Assembly (NCBI GenBank): GCA_964471745.1
Contig: CAYYHI010000002.1
Span: 1-48,101, forward strand
DNA: 48,101 nt
Direction of reading: 5' to 3'
Source: an uncultured bacterium
GTDB lineage: Bacteria > Electryoneota > AABM5-125-24 > Hatepunaeales > Hatepunaeaceae
The notes beneath the pieces are model-generated. The model was not told the origin of the DNA, made no database searches, and saw only the letters and a list, made by a program, of their open reading frames with translations. A program made the translations under genes and the position numbers. Within the stretch, counting starts at the first letter, position 1. Every line of letters begins with the position of its first letter. Of this stretch, positions 3,374 through 40,534 are shown piece by piece.

Positions 3374-3590
3374 GGGGAGCATAGACACTCTCAGTGTGTC
3401 TGAGAATACAAAATTGTCCCGGGATTCATCATTCCAACGGAAGTTGGAATCCAGAGAAGTTGCTGATATTACATGCGTTACTGGATTCCATCTTTCGATG
3501 GAATGATGAGGTTCGATGCGTTTTTCACATTCTCAGACACACTGCTCTTGTCTGTGCAAGTACGGTTAGACAGGAGTGTCTAACCTCCCC
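3374..3590. repeat. Nested MITE-like repeats: a 60-nt palindromic element interrupted by a 153-nt TIR-bounded element (3392-3544)
   Basis: Outer halves 3374-3391 and 3545-3590 match the intact copy at 21449-21508. The inner element has perfect 16-bp TIRs CAGTGTGTCTGAGAAT/ATTCTCAGACACACTG and is flanked by duplicated CTCT. Confidence 0.85.
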
Positions 3591-3676
3591 TCTAACTGCT
3601 GTTAAGGTATCCTCCGCATCCCCTCCTGCTATTGCAAAGCCTGTCCTCGATGAAACGGGGGGGAAGTTAGAGGGGA

Positions 3677-6600
3677 TTACCGTAAAAGTACCAACTTCTT
3701 CTGTGCTGTCAAACCGGCAGCTTCCAGCCGGACGATGTAAAGACCGCTGGGAAGCAATCCCGCATTCAACATCAGGCTGTGACTGCCGCCACCAACCTCG
3801 CCGCTCTGCAGAACCCTCACCAGACGACCATTCACATCCAACAATTCAAGCCGCATCTCACCGGCGCCCGGCAGGTTATAGCCGATCCTCACGCTGGAGT
3901 TGAACGGATTTGGACTGGGATGTTCGAGCCCGAAAACAACCGGCTGCAAGTCAACATCATCCGTCAGATCGAGATAACCATCCGCCGGGATCGTTGTGAA
4001 CAGAATTGCACGCTCCGGTTCCAACTCCGCCGCTGCCGGATGATAGATATTGGCATAAGTAATTTCAAGCCCGCGCCTGTGCAGCCAGTCCTGGATGCCG
4101 ACGGTTGCAAAGTTGGTCTCAGTTCGGTCGACAACGACGACATCAAGGTACTGCATCAGGATTTCACCGTCACCCGTTTCCGTCCGGTGACCTTCCGCTG
4201 TCGGGTTGAATAGTATCAGCTCGAAGGTTTCCAGATGATCTTCAACGCTTGTTCTCGCATTGACCCGGCTCCATTCGATGATAAAACGATCTTCCTCCTC
4301 GTCATAGCGCGTGAAGATATCGAGGCTATCCCGCATGTCAGAACCAATGCTATCGCCGACAAGATCCTCCCAGAACGGCGCTATCATGGAATGCGGTCCC
4401 AAAGGTGACGGCATCCCCCAGTTGCGGAAGTTGTAGTACAAGTTGGATGCCTCAAAGCTGATCCAGCCGTTGGAGCAGACCGCAATTGAATCGTACTCCT
4501 CACCGTAAAAGATGAAGGTAAATGGTAGTTCATATAAATATGTTGTATCATCTATAAATCGTTGAAGAAGCGCACCCTCACCGCCATAATCCGGATCAAG
4601 CTCTATCCAGTCGAACTCCGGCGCCTGGGGATACCGATCGCTATCGTCACAGCTCTCGTATGCATAATAACCGTATCCGTCCGGTCCGATCGGGTCTTCG
4701 GGTCCGACGTCACCGATGATGATCTTGAACGGCATGGTATTAACACGGCGGTCGTTGCTGTCGGTTAGGTGGACGATGAGCTCGACTCGCCTGCCGTCCG
4801 CTGCTCTGTCCTCAGCCTCGATGCGGAACGGGTTTCCCGAGCAGTCAACGGTTTCACCTGCGCCGATATCGCCGAATTCAGCTTCATTGTCGACGATCGT
4901 GATCGAGTTGTCATAAGTTATTATCTCAGCCGTGAGTCCCGTTAAATCCATGTCGCCACCGTTCATTACTGTGACCACCAGATCAGCAGCTTCTCCCGGA
5001 TTGATGACACCGCCCTCGAATTCATAACTGACATATTTTACAACGCCGGTGCTGATCGGCAGGCGGAAGAGAGCGTGGTAACTGTTCTGCTGGTCATCTG
5101 TAATTTGCAGCAGAAAGGGAACATGATCCGCGGATGGAATCTCATGCGAAAGGATCACTCTGAATGGTCCATTGGCGGCAACAAACTCTCCCGTTGCTAT
5201 ATCGCCGAAGTCGGCGCTTGCTTGTACGATCTCAACCTCATCAATCGCGCTGGAAAGGGTTGCAATAACACCCCTGGAGTTGTTAATACCCGTGTTGCGC
5301 AGGGTTACCGTCAGATCAACCGGTGTGCCGGTGATCAGCCTGTCATCATCGCCGTTGGAAACGATAACACCGGCAAAGCCGATGTTTCTTTCGGCGGCAC
5401 TTACCGGTATTGTAGCAAGATAAGGAAAAGCCTGCTTGGCAATTACCGTAACCTCCAAATCACCTTCACTGTCCAGTTGAACGGGAACCAGGGCTAATCC
5501 GTCGGCGTCGGTCAGTACGCTGATCCCGGTCTCATCGGTCTTGCGCAGCGTAACCATCGCGCCGTAAACAGGATTGCCTGCCTGGTTTCGCACCGTAAAC
5601 GCAGTGTAACTATCACCGATATAGAGCTGTTCAGTGTGTTCGACTTCCAATGTGAAAGGTGCATCCAGGTAAACCGTCACTTCCGGGTCGCCGATAATGT
5701 TATAGATGTAGGTGTAAAACTCAACCTCCCTGCCACGTTCCCTCTTATGCGGATAGCCGTCCCAGAGCTCCATCTTGGCAGCAAGTGTCAGCGGTGCGAA
5801 ATTCCGAATGTTCCGATAAAGGAGGCTGAAGTAGAATCCACCGAGCAACGGGTTGTTGTACCTGGTTTTTGTGTAGAGGTCGGAGGGTCCGAAAAACACC
5901 AAACCGGCGCAGGGTGTTCTCCTTGTTCCCTGAAGAATTGAATATTCACCGAAGCACTGCATATGATCGTCATTATGGAAATCGCCGGTGTTGCAGACAA
6001 AGAAGGTGGAAATCGGCAGCAATGGGTCGTTGTATAGTTCCTCAAGGTTCTCCTTGTGGAACGTCGGGAAATGAGGACCATTAGCATCACCCCAGCCGCG
6101 ATAGGCGAGAATATTAATACGGCGGTTGATCGATTCGACAATCGGACCGGGATTAACGTTATCACCCGAACGCTCCCAGTAGAACTCTTCGACGTCATAC
6201 CCGCGCTCGCGCAGTCTCTCCGCGAGCCAGCGACAGGTTTCAACAGGACTGGATGTCAGTTCTCCTGAGTCGTCGTAATTACCGCCGAAAACTGTTGCCC
6301 GGTGATAGGCACCCATATCGAGATCGCCCAGGTTCTGCATATCCCTTTCGTGCCTGAGATACCTTGCCAGGGCTCGTTGAAGTTCGCCGGGATTGGGTGA
6401 ATCGCACGAAATCCGACCTATAAAAGCATCTATGAAGTAGTCGTCGCCTTCAAGCATAACATAGGGCTGATCCGTGGGATCAGTCTCGGCGCAATCGGGG
6501 TTTCTTATATAGAAAGTCGGAAGATGAATGCCGGGGGCGTCTACGTCTCCAACCAGCAGGACGTATTCAGGCGGTCGTTCCCAGTTGTCATAAGCGTCCT

Positions 6601-8668: not shown

Positions 8669-11344
8669 ATGGACATAAACAAATTCACCGAACGCGCCCA
8701 GGCGGCTCTGACTTCCGCCCAGTCCACTGCAATGGAAGCCGGCAATCCGCAGATTGAGGTTGAACATCTGTTGAAAGCCCTGATCCAGCAGGAAGACGGG
8801 TTATGCGGCAGAATTTTAAGCCGGCTGGAAGTCGATATCGATAGTTTCATAGACGACCTGGACAGAGCCGTAAGTGCGATCCCGCGCGTCAGCGGACCGG
8901 GCTTTGAGCCGGGCAAGCTGTACCTCTCACCGGAAGTGCAGCAGTTATTGGTTAAAGCAGAAAACGAAGCCAAACGGATGGGCGACGAGTATGTCAGCGT
9001 TGAACATCTGCTTCTCGAATTGTCAGACTTCGACAGACGCGCCCGGATCGGTAAACTGCTCGAAAAACACGGCATAACGCGTGACAAACTACTTAAGGCA
9101 CTCTCCTCGATCCGCGGTCATCAGCGCGTTACCAGCGCAAATCCAGAAGCCACTTACGAAGCGCTGTCCCGTTATGGTCGAGACCTGGTCTCCGAAGCAA
9201 GGAACGACAAGCTCGACCCGGTAATCGGTCGCGACGATGAGATCCGACGGATCATCCGCATCCTCTCGCGCCGCACCAAGAACAATCCGGTGCTGATCGG
9301 CGAAGCCGGCGTGGGCAAGACCGCCATCGTCGAAGGTCTGGCTCAACGCATCGTGCGCGGCGACGTGCCGGAAGGCTTAAAAGATCGCACTGTCTGGGCG
9401 CTGGACATGGCTTCTGTTGTCGCCGGTGCCAAGTTCCGCGGTGAATTCGAGGAACGGCTGAAGGCGATCCTGAAGGAGGTTCAGAAGTCCGAGGGCGAGA
9501 TAATACTGTTCATCGACGAACTGCATAACGTCGTCGGTGCCGGTCGTGCCGAGGGTTCGATGGATGCGGGCAACATCATGAAACCGATGCTCGCACGCGG
9601 CGAACTGCACTGCATCGGCGCTACGACCATCGACGAGTACCGCAGACACATCGAAAAAGATCCGGCGCTGGAGCGGCGTTTCCAGCCGTTATTGATCGAC
9701 CCGCCCGGCGTCGAGGATTCAATCTCAATCCTGCGCGGGCTGCGGGAACGATTCGAAGTACACCACGGCGTACGGATTCAGGACAACGCCCTCGTGGCGG
9801 CGGCAGTCATGTCTAACCGCTATATCTCCGACCGCTTCCTGCCCGACAAGGCTATCGACCTGGTCGATGAAGCCGCGGCGATGATCCGCAGCGAGATCGA
9901 CTCCATGCCCGCCGAACTTGACTCCATTACCCGCCGCTGCACCCAGTTGGAGATAGAACGCCAGGCGCTGCGCCGTGAAAAGGATGATAAATCAAAAGAA
10001 AGGCTTGGTGCGATCCAGAACGAACTTGAAGAATTGCAGGTACGCGGCGACAGCCTGAAGGAACGTTGGGAGGAGGAGAAAAAGCTCATCAGCCACGCGC
10101 GGGAACTGCGTGAACAGATTGAAATAAACCGCCTCGAAATCGATCGCGCCGAGCGCGAGTATGACTTGGACCGAGCCGCTGAACTGAAATACGGACGTAA
10201 GATTGAGCTGGAGAAGGAACTCAAGGCAGCCGAAGCTAAGATAGAGGAATCAAAGGGAGCAAGGCTTCTAAAAGAGGAGGTCACCGAGGACGAGATTGCC
10301 GCTATCGTATCCCAGTGGACGGGCGTTCCGGTGTCGCGCCTGATCGAGGGTGAACGCGAAAAACTGCTGCAACTTGATGAAACCTTGCATAAGAGGGTTA
10401 TCGGACAGGATGAAGCAGTCCGGGCGGTTACCGATGCGGTTATCAGGGCGCGGTCGGGAATCAAGGACCCGCGTCGACCGATCGGCTCGTTCATCTTCCT
10501 CGGACCGACCGGCGTCGGCAAGACCGAGCTGGCGAGGTCGCTGGCGGAGGCAATGTTCGACAGCGAAGACGCAATGATCCGCATCGACATGTCCGAGTAC
10601 CAGGAGCGTCACACAGTTGCACGCCTGATCGGTGCACCGCCCGGATACGTGGGCTACGAAGAGGGTGGGCAGTTGACCGAAGCCGCCCGGCGCAAGCCCT
10701 ATTCGGTTATCCTGTTCGACGAAATCGAGAAGGCGCATCGCGAGGTTTTCACGGTTCTGCTGCAACTGCTTGACGACGGTCGGTTGACCGATGGACAGGG
10801 ACGAACCGTTGATTTTAAGAACAGCGTGGTGATAATGACGTCGAACATCGGCGGCGAAATCCTTATGAATACCCCCCCTTCTCCCCCCCCGCTGAGCAGG
10901 GGGAAAATTACAGATACTCCTTCTCCCCCCCCGCTAAGCGGGGGGGGAATGAAAGGGGGGGGGATTCCGGACGGTATTCGCGAGCGTGTTATGAACGAGA
11001 TGTCCGCTCATTTCCCGCCGGAGTTCCTGAACCGCGTCGACGACGTGGTGATGTTCGAGCCGTTGACGGTTGAGGATATGGAGCAGATTGTTGATTTGCA
11101 GATCGCCGACCTGGGCATACGCCTTGCCGAACAAGGACTTGAGATCGAAATAACCGACCGTGCCCGTTCGTTCATCGCGCGGGAATCGTACGATCCACAT
11201 TACGGCGCCCGTCCATTGAAGCGTTACTTGCAGAGAAGGCTTGAGACCAGTCTTGGACGCACATTAATCGCCGGCGAAATCGGCGACGGTAAGAAGATTG
11301 TGGTTGATGTGGAGAGTGGGGAGTTGAATTTTAGGGTGCATTAA
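8669..11344 (+). CDS. clpB: ATP-dependent chaperone/disaggregase ClpB
   Basis: 891 aa. It has an N-domain, two AAA+ modules (Walker [16 protein letters not shown] and [11 protein letters not shown]), a long coiled-coil M-domain, and the C-terminal GARPLKR motif. Confidence 0.97.
10872..10963. repeat. C-run/G-run hairpin repeat (two units) inserted in frame inside clpB
   Basis: C7-TTCT-C8-GCTGAGCA-G5 ... TTCT-C8-GCTAAGC-G8-AATGAAA-G9. It translates as [31 protein letters not shown]. Confidence 0.8.
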
Positions 11345-19842: not shown

Positions 19843-21375
19843 ATGAAAAAGATGTATCGACATATTAGAACGTTAATTCTACTGATTATAATTCCTGCTT
19901 TATGTTACTCTATAACGCTGGAAAGGATAAATCATTCTTATCTATATAACAGAGGTAGTGGTGCTGGATTTCATTGCATTACCCCCTTGGAAAACGGACA
20001 ATTTCTAATCGGAGGATCTTTCAGTTCTCCTCGGAATAATGAACTTGACTTTTATTTTTGGCTCGGTGAATCAAGCCTTGATTTGGACTCCGTATACTAT
20101 CAAAGACATTACGGTTCCAGTGGCTGCTTTCAATATGCTGATAAAATTGTAATCAGCTCAAATGGTAACTTAGCTCTATTTGGTGAGTTTCTGCAGGAAG
20201 ATCATGAAATCGACAATTATCGAATTGCTGCCTTTGGTCTGGATGAAGATAGAGATTCACTTTGGTATAATTGTTACGGGGAACTTCATCATTCATGTCG
20301 CTTTGTCGATGCAATTGAGAGAAATGATGACGATGGCTATATTATAATATCCCATAGACAGGATGATCTTTATAATGGGTGGAATTACGTGGAATTATAT
20401 TCAATCGATACAGATGGAAATTTGGAGGATATAATTAATTACGGCGATGACGATATCCTTGACGACGATGATTACGGTTATGATCCGAGCGGAATTATCA
20501 ACCTGAATGATGAGGGTTACTTAATCTATGGTAAATATGTTGCTCATGATGGATATAATGCTAGTCGCGGATTTCTAATGCGAATAAATAATGACTTCGA
20601 TATCGAGTGGTCCACAACCATAATAGACAGCATCAGAGGAGAAGCTGTTCATAGTGGCCGATTTAAGTGCGCAATACCTTCTGTTAATGGTGGATTTTTA
20701 TTAGCCGGTGGTACTGATTTGGGAAGACCAAGTAATTATTCTGAAAAACACTGGATTGTAAAAGTAGATGACGAAGGGGATGTTCAGTGGGAAAGGGTAT
20801 ATGTGGATTATTTTGGAGATCGCGATAACTGGTTTAAGCACATATTTGAGACTGAGGATGGTAATATTCTGGCATTTGGTAAGTCAGAGTCATCGGATAC
20901 AGGAGATCGAAGCCCGTGTATTATGCTGGCAGATAAAGACGGGGATGTAATCGAGGATTATATAGTTGAAGAGTATTATAGTACCGATTATTTTCGCGAT
21001 GTGGCGGCAATAAATAATGATGAGTATGTTGCCATTAGACCAGTTGGAATAACAGTAATTAAGATTAATCTTGGGCAAGGTTCAGTTGCTGACAATTTAA
21101 CAACAACCTGCAAGTCATTCAAATTATATCCCGCCTACCCCAATCCCTTCAACACCCAGGCTCGTTTCGTTTACTCGCTGCCGTATTCGACATCATATTC
21201 GCTGTACCTGTACGACCATGCGGGGCGGTTTGTGAGGTCGATGTCGTCCGGTTATGGCGCTGCCGGCGTGCATCACGGCTGGCTGGACGCCGGGACGCTT
21301 CCGTCGGGCAGCTACTACATCCGACTGCTGACCCCGGATGGTTCTGTCACCTCACCGATTGTGATAACGAAATAG
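19843..21375 (+). CDS. Secreted protein of unknown function, T9SS cargo; AT-rich passenger fused to a GC-rich CTD
   Basis: Signal-like MKKMYRHIRTLILLIIIPALCYS. The passenger is D/N/Y-rich. The CTD is YPNPFNTQARFVYSLP...GSYYIRLLTPDG...PIVITK. Confidence 0.75.
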   Translation: MKKMYRHIRTLILLIIIPALCYSITLERINHSYLYNRGSGAGFHCITPLENGQFLIGGSFSSPRNNELDFYFWLGESSLDLDSVYYQRHYGSSGCFQYADKIVISSNGNLALFGEFLQEDHEIDNYRIAAFGLDEDRDSLWYNCYGELHHSCRFVDAIERNDDDGYIIISHRQDDLYNGWNYVELYSIDTDGNLEDIINYGDDDILDDDDYGYDPSGIINLNDEGYLIYGKYVAHDGYNASRGFLMRINNDFDIEWSTTIIDSIRGEAVHSGRFKCAIPSVNGGFLLAGGTDLGRPSNYSEKHWIVKVDDEGDVQWERVYVDYFGDRDNWFKHIFETEDGNILAFGKSESSDTGDRSPCIMLADKDGDVIEDYIVEEYYSTDYFRDVAAINNDEYVAIRPVGITVIKINLGQGSVADNLTTTCKSFKLYPAYPNPFNTQARFVYSLPYSTSYSLYLYDHAGRFVRSMSSGYGAAGVHHGWLDAGTLPSGSYYIRLLTPDGSVTSPIVITK

Positions 21376-21405
21376 GTTTTATAGGCAGGTAAGATAATAA
21401 GGTAA

Positions 21406-21440
21406 CCCCCCCTTGCCCCCCCCCCTTTCGTAAAGGGGGA
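21406..21440. repeat. C-run/G-run hairpin repeat (intergenic copy)
   Basis: C7-TTG-C10-TTTCGTAAA-G5, the same type as the in-CDS copies at 10872-10963 and 31562-31612. Confidence 0.6.
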
Positions 21441-21448
21441 TTTCCTGA

Positions 21449-21508
21449 GGGGAGGTTAGACACTCCTGTCTGACCTTATTTGCACAGACAAGAGTGTCTA
21501 TGCTCCCC
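21449..21508. repeat. Intact 60-nt palindromic element (same family as the outer element at 3374-3590)
   Basis: GGGGAGGTTAGACACTCCTGTCT...AGACAAGAGTGTCTATGCTCCCC. Its reverse complement aligns with 3374-3391 plus 3545-3590. Confidence 0.85.
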
Positions 21509-30116: not shown

Positions 30117-31066
30117 ACAAGATTATATTTTTCTGGATCAAGGTCGCCATAGCGATCGTCCTGCTCGGATTGATGTTTTACATCGTCAAACCCGGCGCCA
30201 TCTGGGATGCCCTCAGGACTGCACGTTACGAAATGGTCGCGTTTGGTCTGGCGCTGATGCCGCTCAATATCTGGCTCCAGGAGGTCAAGTGGCGCTACCT
30301 GGTCAGGCTGGTTTATCCTCAAGCCGGTTTCAACGACACATTGGGATCGCTCCTCGGCGGCATGGCTTTCGGTATTGTAACCCCCGGTCGAATTGGTGAA
30401 TACGGGCGCGGACTATTCATTAAGCACGGCAAACCACTCAACCTGCTTGGTCTGATCGTGGTCGATAAGTTTTACAACCTCGGCTGCACCATCGCCTTCG
30501 GTCTGCCGGCGTTGATGACTCTGCCCTGGGCGACCGACCTGATCAGCGGACGTCTCTTGATATCCATGGTTCTGCTGCTTTTGTCGATAAATCTGGTTCT
30601 ACTCTACCTCGCGCTTGACCCCAAACCGGTTCGCAGTTTGATCTATGCGCTGCAGATCATGTTCCCGCAGGGCAATAAAATCGCTCAACTGGCGCACGGA
30701 CTCGACCGCTTTGGAACGCCGCAAGCCAGAACGGTTCTGATATTTACTCTGGCGCACTACATTGTTTTCCTCGTGCAGTATTTCGCTCTGATTTGCAGTT
30801 TTTTCGGTCTCGATTTCATAACCAGCTTGCGAGGCGCGGCAGCTATCCTGCTTGTAAAATCAGCACTGCCGATTGCGATTGCCGATCTCGGCATCGACCA
30901 ACTGGTATCAGTGCAGTTCTTCGGGCAGTTTGGCGCTCCTGCCGAAGCGTCTTTCAATGCGTCAATACTGCTATTCGCCATGAATGTCCTCGTGCCCGCT
31001 TTGGCGGGGCTGTTCTTTATCGGACGACTGCGTATCGGGAAAAGTAAGGAGGAGGTCAGCGATTGA
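30113..31066 (+). CDS. Flippase-like / lysylphosphatidylglycerol-synthase-TM-domain (UPF0104, HpnL-like) membrane protein
   Basis: Polytopic, 317 aa. The N-terminal pattern KVAIAIVLLGLMFYIV.....W..L.......V.F.LAL.PLNIWLQEVKWRYL is typical of this family. ATGA overlap with the radical SAM gene. Confidence 0.7.
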   Translation: MNKIIFFWIKVAIAIVLLGLMFYIVKPGAIWDALRTARYEMVAFGLALMPLNIWLQEVKWRYLVRLVYPQAGFNDTLGSLLGGMAFGIVTPGRIGEYGRGLFIKHGKPLNLLGLIVVDKFYNLGCTIAFGLPALMTLPWATDLISGRLLISMVLLLLSINLVLLYLALDPKPVRSLIYALQIMFPQGNKIAQLAHGLDRFGTPQARTVLIFTLAHYIVFLVQYFALICSFFGLDFITSLRGAAAILLVKSALPIAIADLGIDQLVSVQFFGQFGAPAEASFNASILLFAMNVLVPALAGLFFIGRLRIGKSKEEVSD

Positions 31067-32244
31067 ACCTGATCTTCAACATGATATTGACCGCCACAGG
31101 CTTGAGCTACCTGTTTCTGCTCGGGATGATCATCATTGGATTGCACAAGCTTCGGAAGACCAAGCCTGTTGATAACAATTACCAGCCATCTGTTACTATC
31201 GTTATAGCTGCACGCGATGAAGAGGAAAACCTGCCTGCCACCCTTCAAAGCCTGACCTGGCAGAACTATCCGGATGAGCTTCTCGAAATAATCGTCGTCG
31301 ATGACCGTTCCAGTGACCGAACGGCTGAAACAGTCAAGGAATTCAACGCCCGTTATTCGTTTGTCAAGCTTATCAGGCAGACTGAGACAATCCCCGGCGC
31401 AAGTCCTAAGAAACAGGCTCTTGAGAAGGGCATCAAAGCTGCCCGCGGTGAAATAATCATGACCACCGACGCCGATTGCACACATGACCGGAACTGGGTG
31501 CAGATTATGGTAGATGGCTTTACCCCGGAAGTGGGCATGGTCATCGGTCAGGCGCGGTTTGCCCCCCCCTTTATTCCCCCCCCGGTTACCGGGGGGGGAG
31601 TAAGGGGGGGGGTTCTCTGGCAGCGGCTTCAGGCGCTGGACTTCCAGGCGCTGGGCTACGCATCCGCCGGATTGATTGCCGCAGGGATGCCGTTCCATTG
31701 CAGCGGCGCCAGCCTCGCCTTCCGCAAACAGCTATTCGACGATATCCAAGGCTGGAAAGGTTACGACAAGCTGATATCAGGCGATGATGAGCTGCTGATG
31801 GCAAAAGCCGTGAAAAGCCGCTGGAAAATCGTCGCTGCTACATCACCGGCGTCGATTGTTAAGGCACGACCAGTCTCAACCTTGAAGGAATTATGGCATC
31901 AGCGTATCAGGTGGGGCTCCAAGGGATTGTACTACCGCTTTTCACGCAAGTTCGTCCTTTCGGGCGTCTTCCTGTTTCTTCTGACATTGCTTATCGGACC
32001 CTTTATCGTAATCACAACAGGCAGTTGGATATACTGGATTGAATGGATCCTTTTCAGATTTCTACTCGATTGGACCGCCGTCAAGGACGGCAGTCAGGTC
32101 TTCGGTGAGAAACTACCTTTCGCCGAATTCCTGCTAACCGAGATCATCTACCCACCAGCAATAGTTGTTTTCACGGTTGCCGGTCACTTCACCAGTTTCC
32201 GATGGAAGGATCAGCGTTTCCGCAGCCGGGGTAAAGCCCGATGA
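31063..32244 (+). CDS. Membrane-anchored family 2 glycosyltransferase (lipid-type), paralog 2, carrying an in-frame repeat insertion
   Basis: Motifs VTIVIAARDEEENL, QNYPDELLEIIVVDDRSSDRT, SPKKQALEKGI, IIMTTDADC, GDDELLMAK and QRIRWGSKG, with C-terminal TM helices. TTGA overlap upstream; an alternative ATG is at 31081. Confidence 0.85.
   Translation: MNLIFNMILTATGLSYLFLLGMIIIGLHKLRKTKPVDNNYQPSVTIVIAARDEEENLPATLQSLTWQNYPDELLEIIVVDDRSSDRTAETVKEFNARYSFVKLIRQTETIPGASPKKQALEKGIKAARGEIIMTTDADCTHDRNWVQIMVDGFTPEVGMVIGQARFAPPFIPPPVTGGGVRGGVLWQRLQALDFQALGYASAGLIAAGMPFHCSGASLAFRKQLFDDIQGWKGYDKLISGDDELLMAKAVKSRWKIVAATSPASIVKARPVSTLKELWHQRIRWGSKGLYYRFSRKFVLSGVFLFLLTLLIGPFIVITTGSWIYWIEWILFRFLLDWTAVKDGSQVFGEKLPFAEFLLTEIIYPPAIVVFTVAGHFTSFRWKDQRFRSRGKAR
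31562..31612. repeat. C8/G8 double hairpin repeat inserted in frame in the GT2 gene
   Basis: C8-TTTATT-C8-GGTTACC-G8-AGTAA-G9. It translates as PPFIPPPVTGGGVRGG and is absent from the paralog at 26455-27579. Confidence 0.8.
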
Positions 32245-34965: not shown

Positions 34966-36348
34966 ATGATTGACCCGGCTCCCCAATTCCGTGAAGATCA
35001 CCGGACAATCTGGCGGCTAATTACCGATAAACTGCAGGAAGAGCTCCCACGACAGAGCTTTCTTACCTGGTTCAAACCGATCGAACCGTTGTCCTTCACT
35101 GACCGGGTGCTTCTACTTAAAATTCCGAGCAGGTTTTACTATGACTGGATAGAAAGCCACTACAGCGACCACCTTAGACGAGCAGTTCTGTCAACATTCG
35201 GCGAAGAGATCGAAGTTGCCTATGACATCGATCAAAATCGATCAGCTCAGAACCGTAATCTTGTAAGTGGCTCCCCAAGGACCTTTGAGAATCAATCCCT
35301 TAAGAATCTTTCGGAAAAATCCCGCTTGAATCCCCGCTACAGATTGGAAAACTTTATCGAGGGGGATTGTAACCGCTTTGCGCGTGCGGCTGCGATGTCC
35401 CTGGCGGAAGCACCAGGACGTACGCCGTTCAACCCACTTTTGATCTATGGTGGTTCCGGTCTGGGGAAAACCCACCTGATGCAGGCAATTGGCAATCACA
35501 TCCTCGAAAAAGGTATAACCAGTAAAATTCTATATGTCACCAGCGAGCAGTTTACAACCGAATTCATAAAGAGTATTCAGTCAAGCAGAACAGAATCGTT
35601 CAGTCGCATTTACAGAAAAGTAGATGTGCTTCTTCTTGATGATGTGCAGTTCTTCATGGCAAAGAACAAGACGCAGGAGGAGTTCTTCCATACGTTCAAT
35701 TCACTGCATCAATCCGGCAAGCAGCTTGTGTTCTCGTCAGACCGTTCACCCTGCGATCTTGAGGGTTTTGATGAGAGACTTGTCAGCCGTCTGCAATGGG
35801 GTCTTGTTGCGGAGCTTCGCCTTCCCGAATACGAAACTCGTCTGGCAATACTTAAAAGCTTCGCAATCTCAGAAAATATAGAACTACAGGACGACATTGC
35901 CCACTTCCTCGCTATTCACGTTACCGATAACATTCGTTCACTGCAAAGCGTACTTATACACATGCTGGCACAATCCTCGCTGGTTGGAAGATTTATTACA
36001 ATGGACCTGGCTCGCGATGCTATTAGGAGCCTTGGCAAGCACAACGTTAAGGAGGTAACCGTTGAACACATTCTGGACGTCGTTGCTCGGGAGCTAAATG
36101 TTCCCAATGATCTTCTGCGGTCAAAGACGCGCAAGCAGGAAGTATCAATAGCAAGACAGATATCAATGTTCCTCGCAACTGAATTCACACGCCTTACCCT
36201 TAAAGCCATAGGTCTTCATTTCGGTGGACGTGATCACGCCACAGTCATTCATGCACGCGAAAACATCAAAAGGCTAATCGCTGATGATCCCAGCAAAGCA
36301 GAACTTATAAGTAACCTCCGCCGAAAACTTGAATTAGCCTCTTTATAA
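34966..36348 (+). CDS. dnaA: Chromosomal replication initiator protein DnaA
   Basis: Walker A GGSGLGKTHL, LLLDDVQF, and the domain IV helix-turn-helix region RKQEVSIARQISMFL....GLHFGGRDHATVIHA. Confidence 0.97.
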   Translation: MIDPAPQFREDHRTIWRLITDKLQEELPRQSFLTWFKPIEPLSFTDRVLLLKIPSRFYYDWIESHYSDHLRRAVLSTFGEEIEVAYDIDQNRSAQNRNLVSGSPRTFENQSLKNLSEKSRLNPRYRLENFIEGDCNRFARAAAMSLAEAPGRTPFNPLLIYGGSGLGKTHLMQAIGNHILEKGITSKILYVTSEQFTTEFIKSIQSSRTESFSRIYRKVDVLLLDDVQFFMAKNKTQEEFFHTFNSLHQSGKQLVFSSDRSPCDLEGFDERLVSRLQWGLVAELRLPEYETRLAILKSFAISENIELQDDIAHFLAIHVTDNIRSLQSVLIHMLAQSSLVGRFITMDLARDAIRSLGKHNVKEVTVEHILDVVARELNVPNDLLRSKTRKQEVSIARQISMFLATEFTRLTLKAIGLHFGGRDHATVIHARENIKRLIADDPSKAELISNLRRKLELASL

Positions 36349-36784
36349 AACTAATTACTTCATTACATTTATAACCGTTACCAACATACGCACCTTAACG
36401 CTGTTAAATAATGTTCATTGAGTGTTAATTACCTACCGGATCCGCATGATTCATGCGAAAAATCAACGTTTATAAATATTCACTCTCACAATTTAACTTC
36501 GATGCTAATACCAGCACAAGCTATATATCCAAGCACACATTAAGAATAAACAATGTCTTAATATTTATTATATATAACTTTTTAACATATTCACACTACT
36601 TATTATTACTACTTTAATTTTAATTAATCTATTTTTTATAAAAGAATCTAATGGAATTTAATTTTTCAAAATATCCTCGTGTCTTGAAGTAAATAATTAA
36701 TTATACTTTATTGAATACAGTGTACTTTCTAGTAAATAAGTCCTTACAATCTAAGGAGAAAATTACAATCAGAGGTTATTCCAA
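36349..36784. promoter_or_regulatory. AT-rich dnaA-dnaN intergenic region, candidate oriC / DNA-unwinding element
   Basis: 436 nt of non-coding DNA, extremely AT-rich around 36520-36700. Only degenerate DnaA-box-like 9-mers are present (for example ATATTCACA, 8/9 to TTATNCACA). Confidence 0.45.
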
Positions 36785-37903
36785 ATGAAGTTTACCTTTA
36801 CACAAGCATCAATGATGTCTGGTTTACAGCGCGTTATGGGCGCAGTGCCTGTAAGGATGCCAATGCCATCATTGGGAAATCTTTTTTTCAAGCTTTCAGA
36901 GGGCAAGCTTGAGGTTACAGCAACAGACCTTGAGATCACAGTAATGGCAAAAGTTGAGCTCATAGAATCGGATGGCGAAGGAAGCGTGCTCATTCAGGCA
37001 AAACGTTTTCAGGAACTCATCAGGGAATTGCCTGATGTTCCGCTTGAGATAGATGTTCAGGAATCGATGAAGGTTATACTAAGAGGTGAAGGAGTTGGGG
37101 TTTATACACTTCCAGGTGGAGACCCCATGGATTTCCCTGAGCTTCCGCCTATTGATACCAAGCTGTCGTTTAGTATGGATGGTGAGAGCGTTAACAGAAT
37201 GATATTGAAGACAATGTTTTCTGTGTCGCACGACGAGATGAGACCGATACTTACCGGTGTTTTAATGCAGATAAGACCAAACGAATTAAGGATGGTAGCT
37301 ACTGACGGTCACAGGTTGTCAAGGATAATAAGAACAGGAATAGAATACTCCGGAGAGCCACGTGATGTAGTTATACCCATGAAGGCGTTTAGCCTGTTGA
37401 CACGAAGCCTGGACGAAACAGAAGCCCCAGTCATAGGAATCGCCGAGACCAGAGCCTCCTTCACAACCGATAACCAGCGACTGACAACCAGGCTTATCGA
37501 GGGTCACTACCCGAAGTACGAGAGCGTCATCCCCGAAGACAACCCTCATAAGTTAACAGCAAATACGGACGAGCTGACATCAGTGTTGAAGCGTGTATCT
37601 ATATTTGCGAATCAGATTTCACGCCAGGTCAAGTTAACAATTGATTCCAAGCAGGTTATAATGGAAACTGAAGACCCTGAGCTTGGAGGTCGAGGCGAGG
37701 AGAAGCTCGCAGTTAATTATGAGGGTACACCACTCGAGATTGCTTACAATGCAAATTACTTCATGGACATGTTGAGACAGATCGATACAGATGAAGTTGT
37801 CTTTGCATTAAATACATCCAACGATGCAGCGACTATCAGACCAACCACTCAGAAGGAGGACGAAGATTTCCTTATGTTGCTTATGCCAATAAGGCTTAGG
37901 TAA
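36785..37903 (+). CDS. dnaN: DNA polymerase III beta sliding clamp
   Basis: 372 aa located immediately after dnaA. N-terminal MKFTFTQASMMSGLQRV, ATDGHRL, LIEGHYPKYESVIP and C-terminal LMPIRL are characteristic. Confidence 0.95.
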   Translation: MKFTFTQASMMSGLQRVMGAVPVRMPMPSLGNLFFKLSEGKLEVTATDLEITVMAKVELIESDGEGSVLIQAKRFQELIRELPDVPLEIDVQESMKVILRGEGVGVYTLPGGDPMDFPELPPIDTKLSFSMDGESVNRMILKTMFSVSHDEMRPILTGVLMQIRPNELRMVATDGHRLSRIIRTGIEYSGEPRDVVIPMKAFSLLTRSLDETEAPVIGIAETRASFTTDNQRLTTRLIEGHYPKYESVIPEDNPHKLTANTDELTSVLKRVSIFANQISRQVKLTIDSKQVIMETEDPELGGRGEEKLAVNYEGTPLEIAYNANYFMDMLRQIDTDEVVFALNTSNDAATIRPTTQKEDEDFLMLLMPIRLR

Positions 37904-37960
37904 AGCACACATTTTGAACGCTTCGGTTAGAATTTAGCACAAATTTATCCTTTCAGCTTT

Positions 37961-37990
37961 GGCGGACCGAAGGTCCGCCTTGCCGGTTTT
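37961..37990 (+). terminator. Hairpin after dnaN (weak terminator candidate)
   Basis: GGCGGACC-GAA-GGTCCGCC followed by TTGCCGGTTTT. Confidence 0.4.
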
Positions 37991-38026
37991 GAGGATACTC
38001 GGTACCGTCCGCTCGAATCTCTAAAA

Positions 38027-38389
38027 ATGTCCAAAGTAACATCACGAAAGAAGAAAAAACCGCGCCTTTACGGCTACCTGAAATGGGAGAAAGAAGCGCA
38101 ACGCTGCTTGACAAGCATGTCGATAGGCAATGCTATCGGGGAGCTTGTGAGCATCTTGGGTTATAAGGAAAGGCTCGCTGAACAGGGAGCGATTACGAAC
38201 TGGGAAAGGGCAGTTGGTGAAAGAATAGCTGAGCAAGCTGTGCCGCGTTCCATAAAGAATGGTATACTGAAAGTAAAAGTAAAGAGCCCCGCCTGGCGGC
38301 AGGAACTTATGTTTATCAAAGAGGAAATCCGAAGCAAATTGAATAATGAATTGGGCGAATCTGTTGTTTCTGAAATTAAATTTTCTTAA
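38027..38389 (+). CDS. DUF721 domain protein (DciA-like), in the position usually seen between recF and gyrB
   Basis: W.RAVGERIAEQAVPRSIKNGILKVKVKSPAWRQELMF.KEEI..KLN..LG...V.EIKF follows the DUF721 pattern. The start is uncertain (Met31 is an alternative). Confidence 0.7.
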   Translation: MSKVTSRKKKKPRLYGYLKWEKEAQRCLTSMSIGNAIGELVSILGYKERLAEQGAITNWERAVGERIAEQAVPRSIKNGILKVKVKSPAWRQELMFIKEEIRSKLNNELGESVVSEIKFS

Positions 38390-38445
38390 ATTATAGGGTT
38401 AAAGTAAAAAGAAAGTGTTAACAAAATACTGACATCCACTACGTT

Positions 38446-38520
38446 GTCATTCTGAACGAAGTGAAGAATCTCCAACAGCGGGGGAATGAAAACGAGATTC
38501 TTCACTGCGTTCAGAATGAT
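38446..38520. repeat. Palindromic element GTCATTCTGAACGAAGTGAAGAATCTC / GAGATTCTTCACTGCGTTCAGAATGAT
   Basis: The 27-nt arms are complementary at 25/27 positions. Same family as 34687-34713. Confidence 0.85.
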
Positions 38521-38542
38521 AATAAAAACATTATCATTTTGA

Positions 38543-40533
<1,991 letters not shown>

Positions 40534-40534
<1 letters not shown>

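Follow-up and report, generated by a model that had tools for sequence, protein, structure and literature searches.

The closest described counterparts of the sequence treated here, a composite palindrome of C and G runs inside the clpB gene of an uncultured bacterium of the Electryoneota, are the Rickettsia palindromic elements (RPEs) and the repetitive extragenic palindromic sequences (REPs) with their paired form, REPINs. According to PMC10969869 and PMC3733652, which relay Ogata et al. 2000, RPEs are dispersed non-coding palindromes that lie in frame in unrelated functional housekeeping genes as well as between genes, and the segment they encode is compatible with the protein fold. The same sources describe them as ~100-150 base pairs (bp) long, with a family consensus and a CGTC end tag, and as restricted to Rickettsia and close relatives. 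REPs and REPINs are imperfect, GC-rich palindromes of 20-40 nucleotides (nt) that are frequently joined as pairs in a larger hairpin; they are abundant and genome-specific in sequence, are often situated downstream of genes, lack target duplication and in some cases lie inside genes (PMC3116915, PMC3733652). A GTAG (or CGTC) tetranucleotide marks REPs, most of which are extragenic, and GTAG REPs are linked to a REP-associated tyrosine transposase (RAYT) gene flanked by the same repeat (PMC3116915, PMC3733652); intragenic REPs are known outside Rickettsia (PMC3733652). The window, i.e., the whole stretch of 48,101 nt that was analyzed (contig CAYYHI010000002.1, positions 1 to 48,101, forward strand), originates from a salt-marsh metagenome. 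Its clpB segment is best read, with a probability of roughly 70%, as a copy of a selfish palindrome resembling RPEs and REPs, that is, of a short, non-autonomous, dispersed repeat.

The clpB gene (8669-11344, plus strand) is an intact open reading frame (ORF) encoding 891 amino acids (aa) with Pfam matches to Clp_N, AAA, AAA_lid_9, AAA_2, and ClpB_D2-small. The product thus comprises the Clp_N domain, two AAA+ modules, a middle coiled coil, and the D2-small domain that mark a ClpB, its model displays the expected long helices at 415-527, and it matches the structures of Thermus ClpB (4lj4/1qvr, E=6e-133). The element occupies 10872-10963 on the plus strand (92 nt, ClpB residues ~736-765) and reads C7-TTCT-C8-GCTGAGC-A-G5-AAAATTACAGATACTCC-TTCT-C8-GCTAAGC-G8-AATGAAA-G9. 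An outer C7 run (10872-10878), the pairing partner of the terminal G9 (10955-10963), precedes a first hairpin unit, C8-GCTGAGC-AG5 (10883-10903, plus strand; C8 at 10883-10890, A and G5 at 10898-10903), and a 17-nt spacer then leads to the second, C8-GCTAAGC-G8-AATGAAA-G9 (10925-10963, plus strand; C8 at 10925-10932, G8 at 10940-10947). Both units were compared with a covariance model that was derived from 24 elements, most of them on unrelated contigs, and run on the window with filters off. Unit 1, the G arm of which has decayed, is a weak match (E 0.41), and unit 2 is the best-kept core, with 0 mismatches to the core pattern, a model interval of 10912-10962 (E=5e-5), and near-identical copies at further loci in the same metagenomes. 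The segment also holds a direct repeat on the plus strand, with copies at 10877-10913 and 10919-10955 that are 84% identical and offset, start to start, by 42 nt or 14 codons, as well as many nested inverted repeats; the first copy is missing from a 95%-identical strain (contig L002). As the core pattern has six matches in the window against 0.00 expected from 100 shuffles, and given the E-values of the covariance model, the clpB element is not a chance occurrence. Folded as RNA, a 100-nt stretch containing the element reaches -63.5 kcal/mol (z -4.5). Both 10872-10947 and 31562-31598, the latter in a second gene described below, place a C7-8 run and a 4-6 nt spacer before a very stable hairpin, a layout similar to -1 ribosomal frameshift signals, and the -1 frame of clpB stays open for ~60 codons.

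Homopolymer lengths in the clpB element were taken from low-depth assemblies (~2-7x), and the original prediction, made from the letters of the window, had asked whether they might be assembly artefacts. In Logan contigs from separate runs, the element is reproduced without any difference or gap, its full span being contained in an X1 contig (2884 nt) and an X4 contig (400 nt, 10692-11091) and parts of it in contigs of X3 and X6. In addition, contig L002 of the Joint Genome Institute (JGI), from another project, encodes a one-unit form of the insert with substitutions and an intact frame. Because the contigs of separate runs agree and the diverged strain carries the insert, the element is not an assembly artefact.

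The best 120 ClpB relatives delimit the insert as lineage-specific. Between the motifs MTSNIG and FPPEF, the linker is 53 aa long in the window, 29 aa in the nearest insert-free orthologs, and 28 aa in Thermus ClpB. The original prediction had correctly described both the composition and the in-frame position of the palindrome, and rightly called the linker longer than usual, yet its figures of 52 aa and a reference of ~27 need correction; its own counter-scenario, an equally long non-repetitive linker in close orthologs, does not apply. The nearest relative, P0001 (encoded by L002; 97% aa and 94.8% nt identity), holds one repeat unit (16 aa) and is 14 aa shorter. In P0002, P0003, P0005, and others (80-74% identity, ~867 aa), the site reads TL-DGSHDH-IPDD and C/G runs are absent, DGSxxH being found at the insertion site of insert-free orthologs. 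A different copy is present at the same codon boundary in P0004 (76% identity, Calditrichaeota bacterium AABM5.125.24), where it reads ACT / C7-TGCTTGGCA-G7-AACTGA-G9-C / GAT (slashes marking the boundaries), is 39 nt long, translates as PPLLGRGGTEGGG, and leaves the ancestral DDSPHR in place. In a ClpB tree calculated with the insert masked, the window and P0001 form a clade in 50/50 bootstraps with the insert-free P0002 as sister, while P0004 branches elsewhere and the three carriers are monophyletic in 0/50 bootstraps; two independent insertions, one shared by the window and P0001 and one in P0004, would therefore be the simplest account. The element is present in both strains of the window clade and hence older than their divergence, which amounts for clpB to dS 0.215 and dN 0.010. 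The resulting dN/dS of 0.046 indicates that clpB remained under strong purifying selection while it contained the element.

Structural modeling locates the insert at a position where an addition could be tolerated. In an AlphaFold model based on 40 homologues, residues 738-764 form a coil with pLDDT <50 between helices 729-733 and 768-781, whereas the flanking fold is confident, and the alignment to the second nucleotide-binding domain (NBD2) of Thermus ClpB breaks precisely at the insert. The element is thus predicted to add a disordered, Pro/Gly-rich loop to the second AAA+ module of ClpB, which answers the question, raised beforehand, of whether the insert is a surface loop with a disordered loop between two helices. 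In other lineages, insertions of 16-40 aa that are unrelated and non-palindromic occur in the same loop of ClpB (P0012-P0014) and in that of the glycosyltransferase hosting the second in-frame copy (P0134), and these loops can therefore be regarded as permissive sites.

The covariance model finds three loci in the 48-kb window, namely clpB, a glycosyltransferase family 2 (GT2) gene, and an intergenic region. The GT2 gene (31063-32244, plus strand) hosts a full element, C8-TTTATT-C8-GGTTACC-G8-AGTAA-G9 (31562-31612, plus strand, 51 nt; model interval 31561-31613, E=1e-7), which is in frame and translates as PPFIPPPVTGGGVRGG. As RNA, it forms a near-perfect 25-bp hairpin of -56.8 kcal/mol. The element is covered by an X2 contig with 0 differences; X2 also holds a variant allele with five substitutions within the element and an unchanged length. 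The intergenic copy, TAA-C7-TTG-C10-TTTCGTAAA-G5-ATTTCCTGA-GGGGAGG-TTA (21403-21458, plus strand; model interval 21406-21454, E=2e-7), begins its first C-run at 21406, 31 nt past the stop of an ORF at 19843-21375. Both copies had been proposed in the original prediction, the GT2 copy with the limits given here and the intergenic one with an end at 21440 that has to be moved to ~21458, but the G7 run at 3657-3663, listed there as a further copy, drops out (E=1.2). This run lies at 3581-3680 within an imperfect long inverted repeat (TAACCTCCCCTCTAACT ... AGTTAGAGGGGATTA) between two minus-strand genes for secreted proteins, which could be a decayed element. Elsewhere in the window, dnaA, dnaN, and gyrB follow one another at 34966-40534, in synteny with the annotated loci L144 and L145, and the window therefore probably includes the chromosomal origin region.

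The GT2 site has a history of its own. The sister ortholog of the window protein, P0122 (59/60 bootstraps), lacks the element and reads AQPKNAP-LWQ, while the more distant P0125, P0127, and P0124 have C8-spacer-C8-loop-G-run elements at the identical site; the orthologs bearing it share 57-65% identity, and the four carriers are monophyletic in 0/60 bootstraps. One of the three distant copies displays a tandem duplication like that of clpB and another three 33-nt in-frame tandem units. In the GT2 gene of L144 (1631-1900), three in-frame 33-nt units (EAGGDVPIDSC) are located between the first hairpin and a second complete unit, C8-GCTTTGC-G8-AATCAAA-G8, giving a protein of 450 aa instead of the usual ~385.

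Beyond the window, the copies define a family in which architecture rather than sequence is conserved. Two C7-10 runs separated by a short T-rich spacer are followed by a palindromic loop of 6-10 nt and two G7-9 runs with a short A-rich spacer between them, for a total of about 35-51 nt, and the whole element can form a nested hairpin. Pairing is kept across copies despite differing loop sequences, the two spacers of one element are often non-complementary, and tandem expansion is common. Family copies are carried by the relatives L003, L046, L141, L142, and L144, with five in 21 kb of L142, including C7-TTTTATT-C7-GCAAAGC-G7; the intergenic L142 copies and the GT2 copy of the window have C7-TTTTATT-C7 in common. 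A first loose scan of genome contigs returned, among the matches listed, mostly actinomycete contig ends with poly-G/poly-C junk and ~15 usable elements. These came from Microcoleus and another cyanobacterium, Planctomycetota, a gammaproteobacterial metagenome-assembled genome (MAG), and others, including a MAG of Spechtbacteria from the candidate phyla radiation (CPR) with the copy C7-ATTCTT-C7-TTCGTAA-G7-ATTGA-G8; Calditrichota likewise show the architecture. It was also found in 15 viral stretches of IMG/VR, with 4-5 copies on single viral contigs, and on at least 120 contigs of a metagenome scan, spanning 31 to 77% contig GC. The idea that the palindromes were spreading in a lineage unrelated to Rickettsia accordingly stands, although the family extends well past the lineage of the window to several phyla and viral contigs. 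At gathering thresholds, no Rfam family matched the elements, the sub-threshold matches being to generic miRNA hairpins only.

Two other groups of contigs in these data show related arrangements. Contig L251 (1900-6320), probably cyanobacterial as judged from HIP1-like GCGATCGC sites, carries the loop TTGCCAA in eight hairpin units over 9.8 kb, of which several occur in clusters within long open frames. A distinct high-GC tandem form, GGGGGGACGAT-C7-AGA-C7-TGCTCAC-G7-CTGCCCG-C7-GTA-C7, is common in soil-type contigs and occurs in long open frames of L153, L156, L165, L170-L172, and ~30 more contigs of 66-77% GC; possibly it is a separate repeat or a coding one.

Residence inside genes is a habit of the family. 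Among the matches listed, 82 of 159 elements are spanned by a frame free of stops for 60 codons or more on each side, and 16 of the 19 such ORFs tested encode recognizable proteins with the element inside a domain. These hosts are HypF, LpxB, a Mur ligase, BipA, an epimerase, GT9, GT4, and GT2 glycosyltransferases, a peptidase M16, and endonuclease I, as well as a valyl-tRNA synthetase (ValRS) with two elements, two alpha-2-macroglobulins, an alpha/beta hydrolase, an aminotransferase, and a Mu transposase. In BipA, the element is a clean insertion of 18 aa relative to the Escherichia coli protein; the same gene (L228, 642-2768) shows a second gap of ~48 aa relative to E. coli BipA at residues 445-494. 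The two in-frame elements of the ValRS gene (L204, 1183-4059) are separate, at about residues 238 and 762. The test of frame considered elements flanked on either side by 80 or more open codons of the same strand. Among the matches listed, 18 of 45 elements (~40%) in low-GC contigs have a coding context, and 16 of these 18 (contig GC <0.5), or 26 of 33 at GC <0.6, are in frame and stop-free, against ~1/3 expected if frame were irrelevant (P ~2e-6 for 16/18 by our own arithmetic). This bias suggests read-through translation under selection, as opposed to excision or bypass, and it bears out the proposed excess of gene-internal copies that preserve the frame. The length of the element itself, from first to last run, carries no signal modulo 3 in coding copies; frame preservation therefore looks like a selection filter and not a design feature. 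Composition may ease passage through this filter, as 73% of the six frames of 71 distinct elements are open and the residues of open frames are 30% Pro and 26% Gly. In the other genes of the window, CCC and GGG make up 23% of Pro and 11% of Gly codons, respectively, whereas the element uses only CCC and GGG, and this exclusive use of minority codons points to a constraint on nucleotides and not on the peptide. With the orthologs and the GT2 and intergenic copies, these results support the central proposal of the original prediction, a frame-preserving palindromic family colonizing coding sequence.

Copies also appear to multiply within genomes. Identical hairpin loops were found in 53 of 121 within-contig pairs (44%) and in 173 of 20789 between-contig pairs (0.83%), a 53-fold difference that fits copying within genomes. 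The same metagenomes contain cores of 38-40 nt, two to three bases off those of clpB and GT2, that have other flanking sequences, and the contigs carrying them follow the clpB contig in depth across five runs (7.4 vs 7.0 in X1, 2.6 vs 2.6 in X3, 3.1 vs 3.4 in X5, 3.4 vs 2.4 in X6, and 2.7 vs 2.2 in X7).

Set against the described systems, the C/G element resembles RPEs in being a hairpin-capable palindromic repeat with in-frame copies in unrelated functional genes (clpB, GT2, and those of the wider sample) and with intergenic copies. It departs from them in its 35-51 nt, in being built of homopolymers with only the architecture conserved, in lacking the CGTC tag, and in occurring outside the Rickettsia lineage, in several phyla and viral contigs, the window itself belonging to a Calditrichota-like MAG. 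Like REPs and REPINs, it is a short, imperfect, GC-rich palindrome, multi-copy and genome-specific in sequence, but a profile of the flanks of 91 elements revealed neither a GTAG nor a CGTC tag. Nor is it predominantly extragenic, with two of the three window loci in genes and the ~40% coding share given above. As for the linkage to a RAYT gene described for GTAG REPs, the window contains no RAYT, and the only two Y1 genes in 1.78 Mb of loci have repeats of other kinds at their flanks. Miniature inverted-repeat transposable elements, or MITEs, with terminal inverted repeats (TIRs), target duplication, 70-300 bp, and a parent insertion sequence (IS), differ in size and in having a parent, since the C/G element has no associated transposase family and shows no duplication at P0004. 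Homopolymeric contingency tracts also place slippage-prone runs comparable to C8-G9 inside genes, yet those are single runs in surface or restriction-modification genes, whereas here four runs form the palindrome of a dispersed family. Small dispersed repeats (SDRs) of Nostoc-type cyanobacteria, which Elhai et al. reportedly described in 2008, are said to be 21-27 nt long, to fall into families SDR1-8 confined to one cyanobacterial subgroup, and not to be homopolymer-based; they reportedly look mobile, with some families alike in hairpin but not in sequence and with nested or tandem arrangements. The resemblance to the C/G element would lie in a size <100 nt, the hairpin, and the tandem forms. 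Fungal mitochondria have GC clusters, double-hairpin elements, and byp elements, all of them short, GC-rich palindromes that spread into coding sequence of a lower-GC genome. Unlike byp elements, which are organellar and skipped by the ribosome, the C/G element appears from the frame test to be translated by read-through. In the full-text papers covered by the search, no published description of this homopolymer-clamp family was found.

Taking the clpB segment as a selfish palindrome, its history could be outlined as follows. A core of ~40-51 nt, lengthened in clpB by the 42-nt internal tandem unit, would have been inserted into the DNA of the gene before the window organism and the 95%-identical strain diverged from their common ancestor, taking the place of ~6 codons from a variable loop of the second AAA+ module. 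With the frame unbroken and free of stops, the element is most likely transcribed and translated together with clpB, and it would give the protein a disordered, Pro/Gly-rich loop. Its persistence may reflect the permissive loop site, the reading of C/G homopolymers as Pro and Gly in all six frames, so that stops and bulky peptides would be rare, and selection that keeps only insertions in multiples of three. It most likely confers no benefit on clpB and is neutral to mildly costly selfish DNA. As for its spread, it could be speculated that copies are made within genomes by a trans-acting factor that acts on the hairpin, such as a single-strand hairpin (HUH-type) enzyme, or that they arise by template switching from one copy to another at the replication fork, using the microhomology of C/G runs.

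Several observations weigh against this account. No target-site duplication was found at P0004, the one clean site, and the only conserved features in the flanks of 91 elements are an A at -1 (55/91) and a T following the final G-run. Clustering of the proteins encoded within 3 kb of elements gave no shared family, no mobilizing enzyme was found near elements, and only two Y1 transposase genes are present in 1.78 Mb of loci, each flanked by different repeats. The same sites have been filled in non-sister lineages (clpB in P0004, GT2 in four lineages), a pattern that could be explained by hot spots or filtering at permissive sites, by recombination spreading copies laterally, or by precise loss on repeated occasions. 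Finally, copies with two C and two G runs give a net gain of 30-36 nt while the element measures 50-51 nt, and ~18-21 nt of the target thus seem to have been replaced, contrary to what simple transposition predicts.

The two Y1 genes have repeats of their own. One encodes an IS200-like Y1_Tnp 2 kb downstream of clpB in Calditrichaeota bacterium AABM5.125.24 (L003, 14514-15128; also L004 and L005) and is flanked by perfect 33-nt inverted repeats, GTGGCCCGGCGAGCTTGCTCGCCGGGTATCTCC, forming a REPtron with a REP unrelated to the C/G element; it was considered as the RAYT of the element and rejected, since the 33-nt REP is different. The other (L148, 6001-6812) has 21-nt TIRs, TAAAGGGGACGGTTCTCTTTA, in a TIRtron-like arrangement 2 kb from a C/G element inside an alpha/beta hydrolase gene.

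A further consideration against selfishness is that the structure itself might serve the host. The element could be a structured module, either a stable mRNA or DNA hairpin or a G-quadruplex/i-motif, with possible roles in pausing at a domain boundary, mRNA stabilization or intergenic termination, or as a homopolymer on/off switch. Very stable folds (-56.8 to -63.5 kcal/mol), intergenic copies directly past stop codons, retention through dS 0.2, and hairpin pairing kept while loops differ would all agree with such a role, and the C7 run, 4-6 nt spacer, and strong hairpin might act as a -1 frameshift signal. However, the same element sits at unrelated positions in unrelated genes, it is missing from the nearest orthologs although the genes are otherwise conserved, its runs are decaying in unit 1 of clpB and in the variant GT2 allele, and no Rfam family at threshold includes it. 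A host function is consequently considered unlikely.

Slightly less probable still is a local origin, in which fold-back or template-switch synthesis and slippage at C-rich/G-rich codons created each palindrome in place, followed by tandem duplication. The GT2 site offers suitable material, as insert-free orthologs read xPPKNPP or AQPKNAP, with two C-rich hexamers around an A-rich spacer where the element has C8-TTTATT-C8, and the net gain of 30-39 nt, below the 50-51 nt of the element, the frequency of tandem expansion, and the recurrence of sites in non-sister lineages would be in line with it. Yet insert-free orthologs lack Pro codons at the clpB site, the C7-TTTTATT-C7 of the intergenic L142 copies recurs in the GT2 copy of the window, and the two spacers of one element are often non-complementary. 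The 53-fold excess of loop identity within contigs and the near-identical cores in different flanks also argue for copying over independent formation.

Very little probability attaches to the removal of the element before it reaches the protein, by intron-like excision or ribosomal bypass. A GC-rich hairpin in coding sequence is reminiscent of the reportedly bypassed elements of Magnusiomyces mitochondria, but 16 of 18 coding copies among the matches listed are in frame and stop-free, and net gains are 30, 33, 36, and 39 nt. Hardly any better placed is the view that selection acts on the Pro/Gly loop as a flexible linker, with the DNA palindrome a by-product: such loops are common as linkers and the insert lies between two helices, but only CCC and GGG are used though they are minority codons, non-coding copies exist, and palindromy belongs to the level of nucleotides. 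Poly-G noise or a palindromic chimera, which the contig-end junk of the loose scan and the low depth (2-7x) might bring to mind, is scarcely credible given identical contigs from separate runs, a diverged strain from another project that has the element with substitutions and the frame kept, and GT2 orthologs at 57-65% identity bearing it at the same site.

The reading of the clpB segment as a selfish palindrome also invites a wider proposal, to which we give somewhat less than even odds: that these ~40-nt homopolymer-clamp hairpins form a new pan-bacterial, phage-borne class, proliferating without a linked transposase and unusually often inside essential genes. If true, no intragenic selfish DNA known would be smaller or more widespread, conserved proteins would repeatedly gain loop insertions from them, and their intragenic habit would follow from the C/G-run design, which yields Pro/Gly loops in all six frames. 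In-frame colonization of housekeeping genes by palindromes is usually taught as a curiosity of Rickettsia, with scattered intragenic REPs besides, and the present locus points to a much smaller element doing likewise among free-living bacteria that belong to several phyla, and on viral contigs. Should the tolerance idea hold, it would caution against discarding such segments as poly-G artefacts in annotation and assembly, and it would raise questions on pausing, frameshifting, and phase variation caused by stable hairpins and C8-G9 tracts in essential mRNAs. It would likewise provide a system for the movement of sub-100-nt repeats without a dedicated neighboring transposase, and it may explain some of the lineage-specific short Pro/Gly "signature indels" in conserved proteins.

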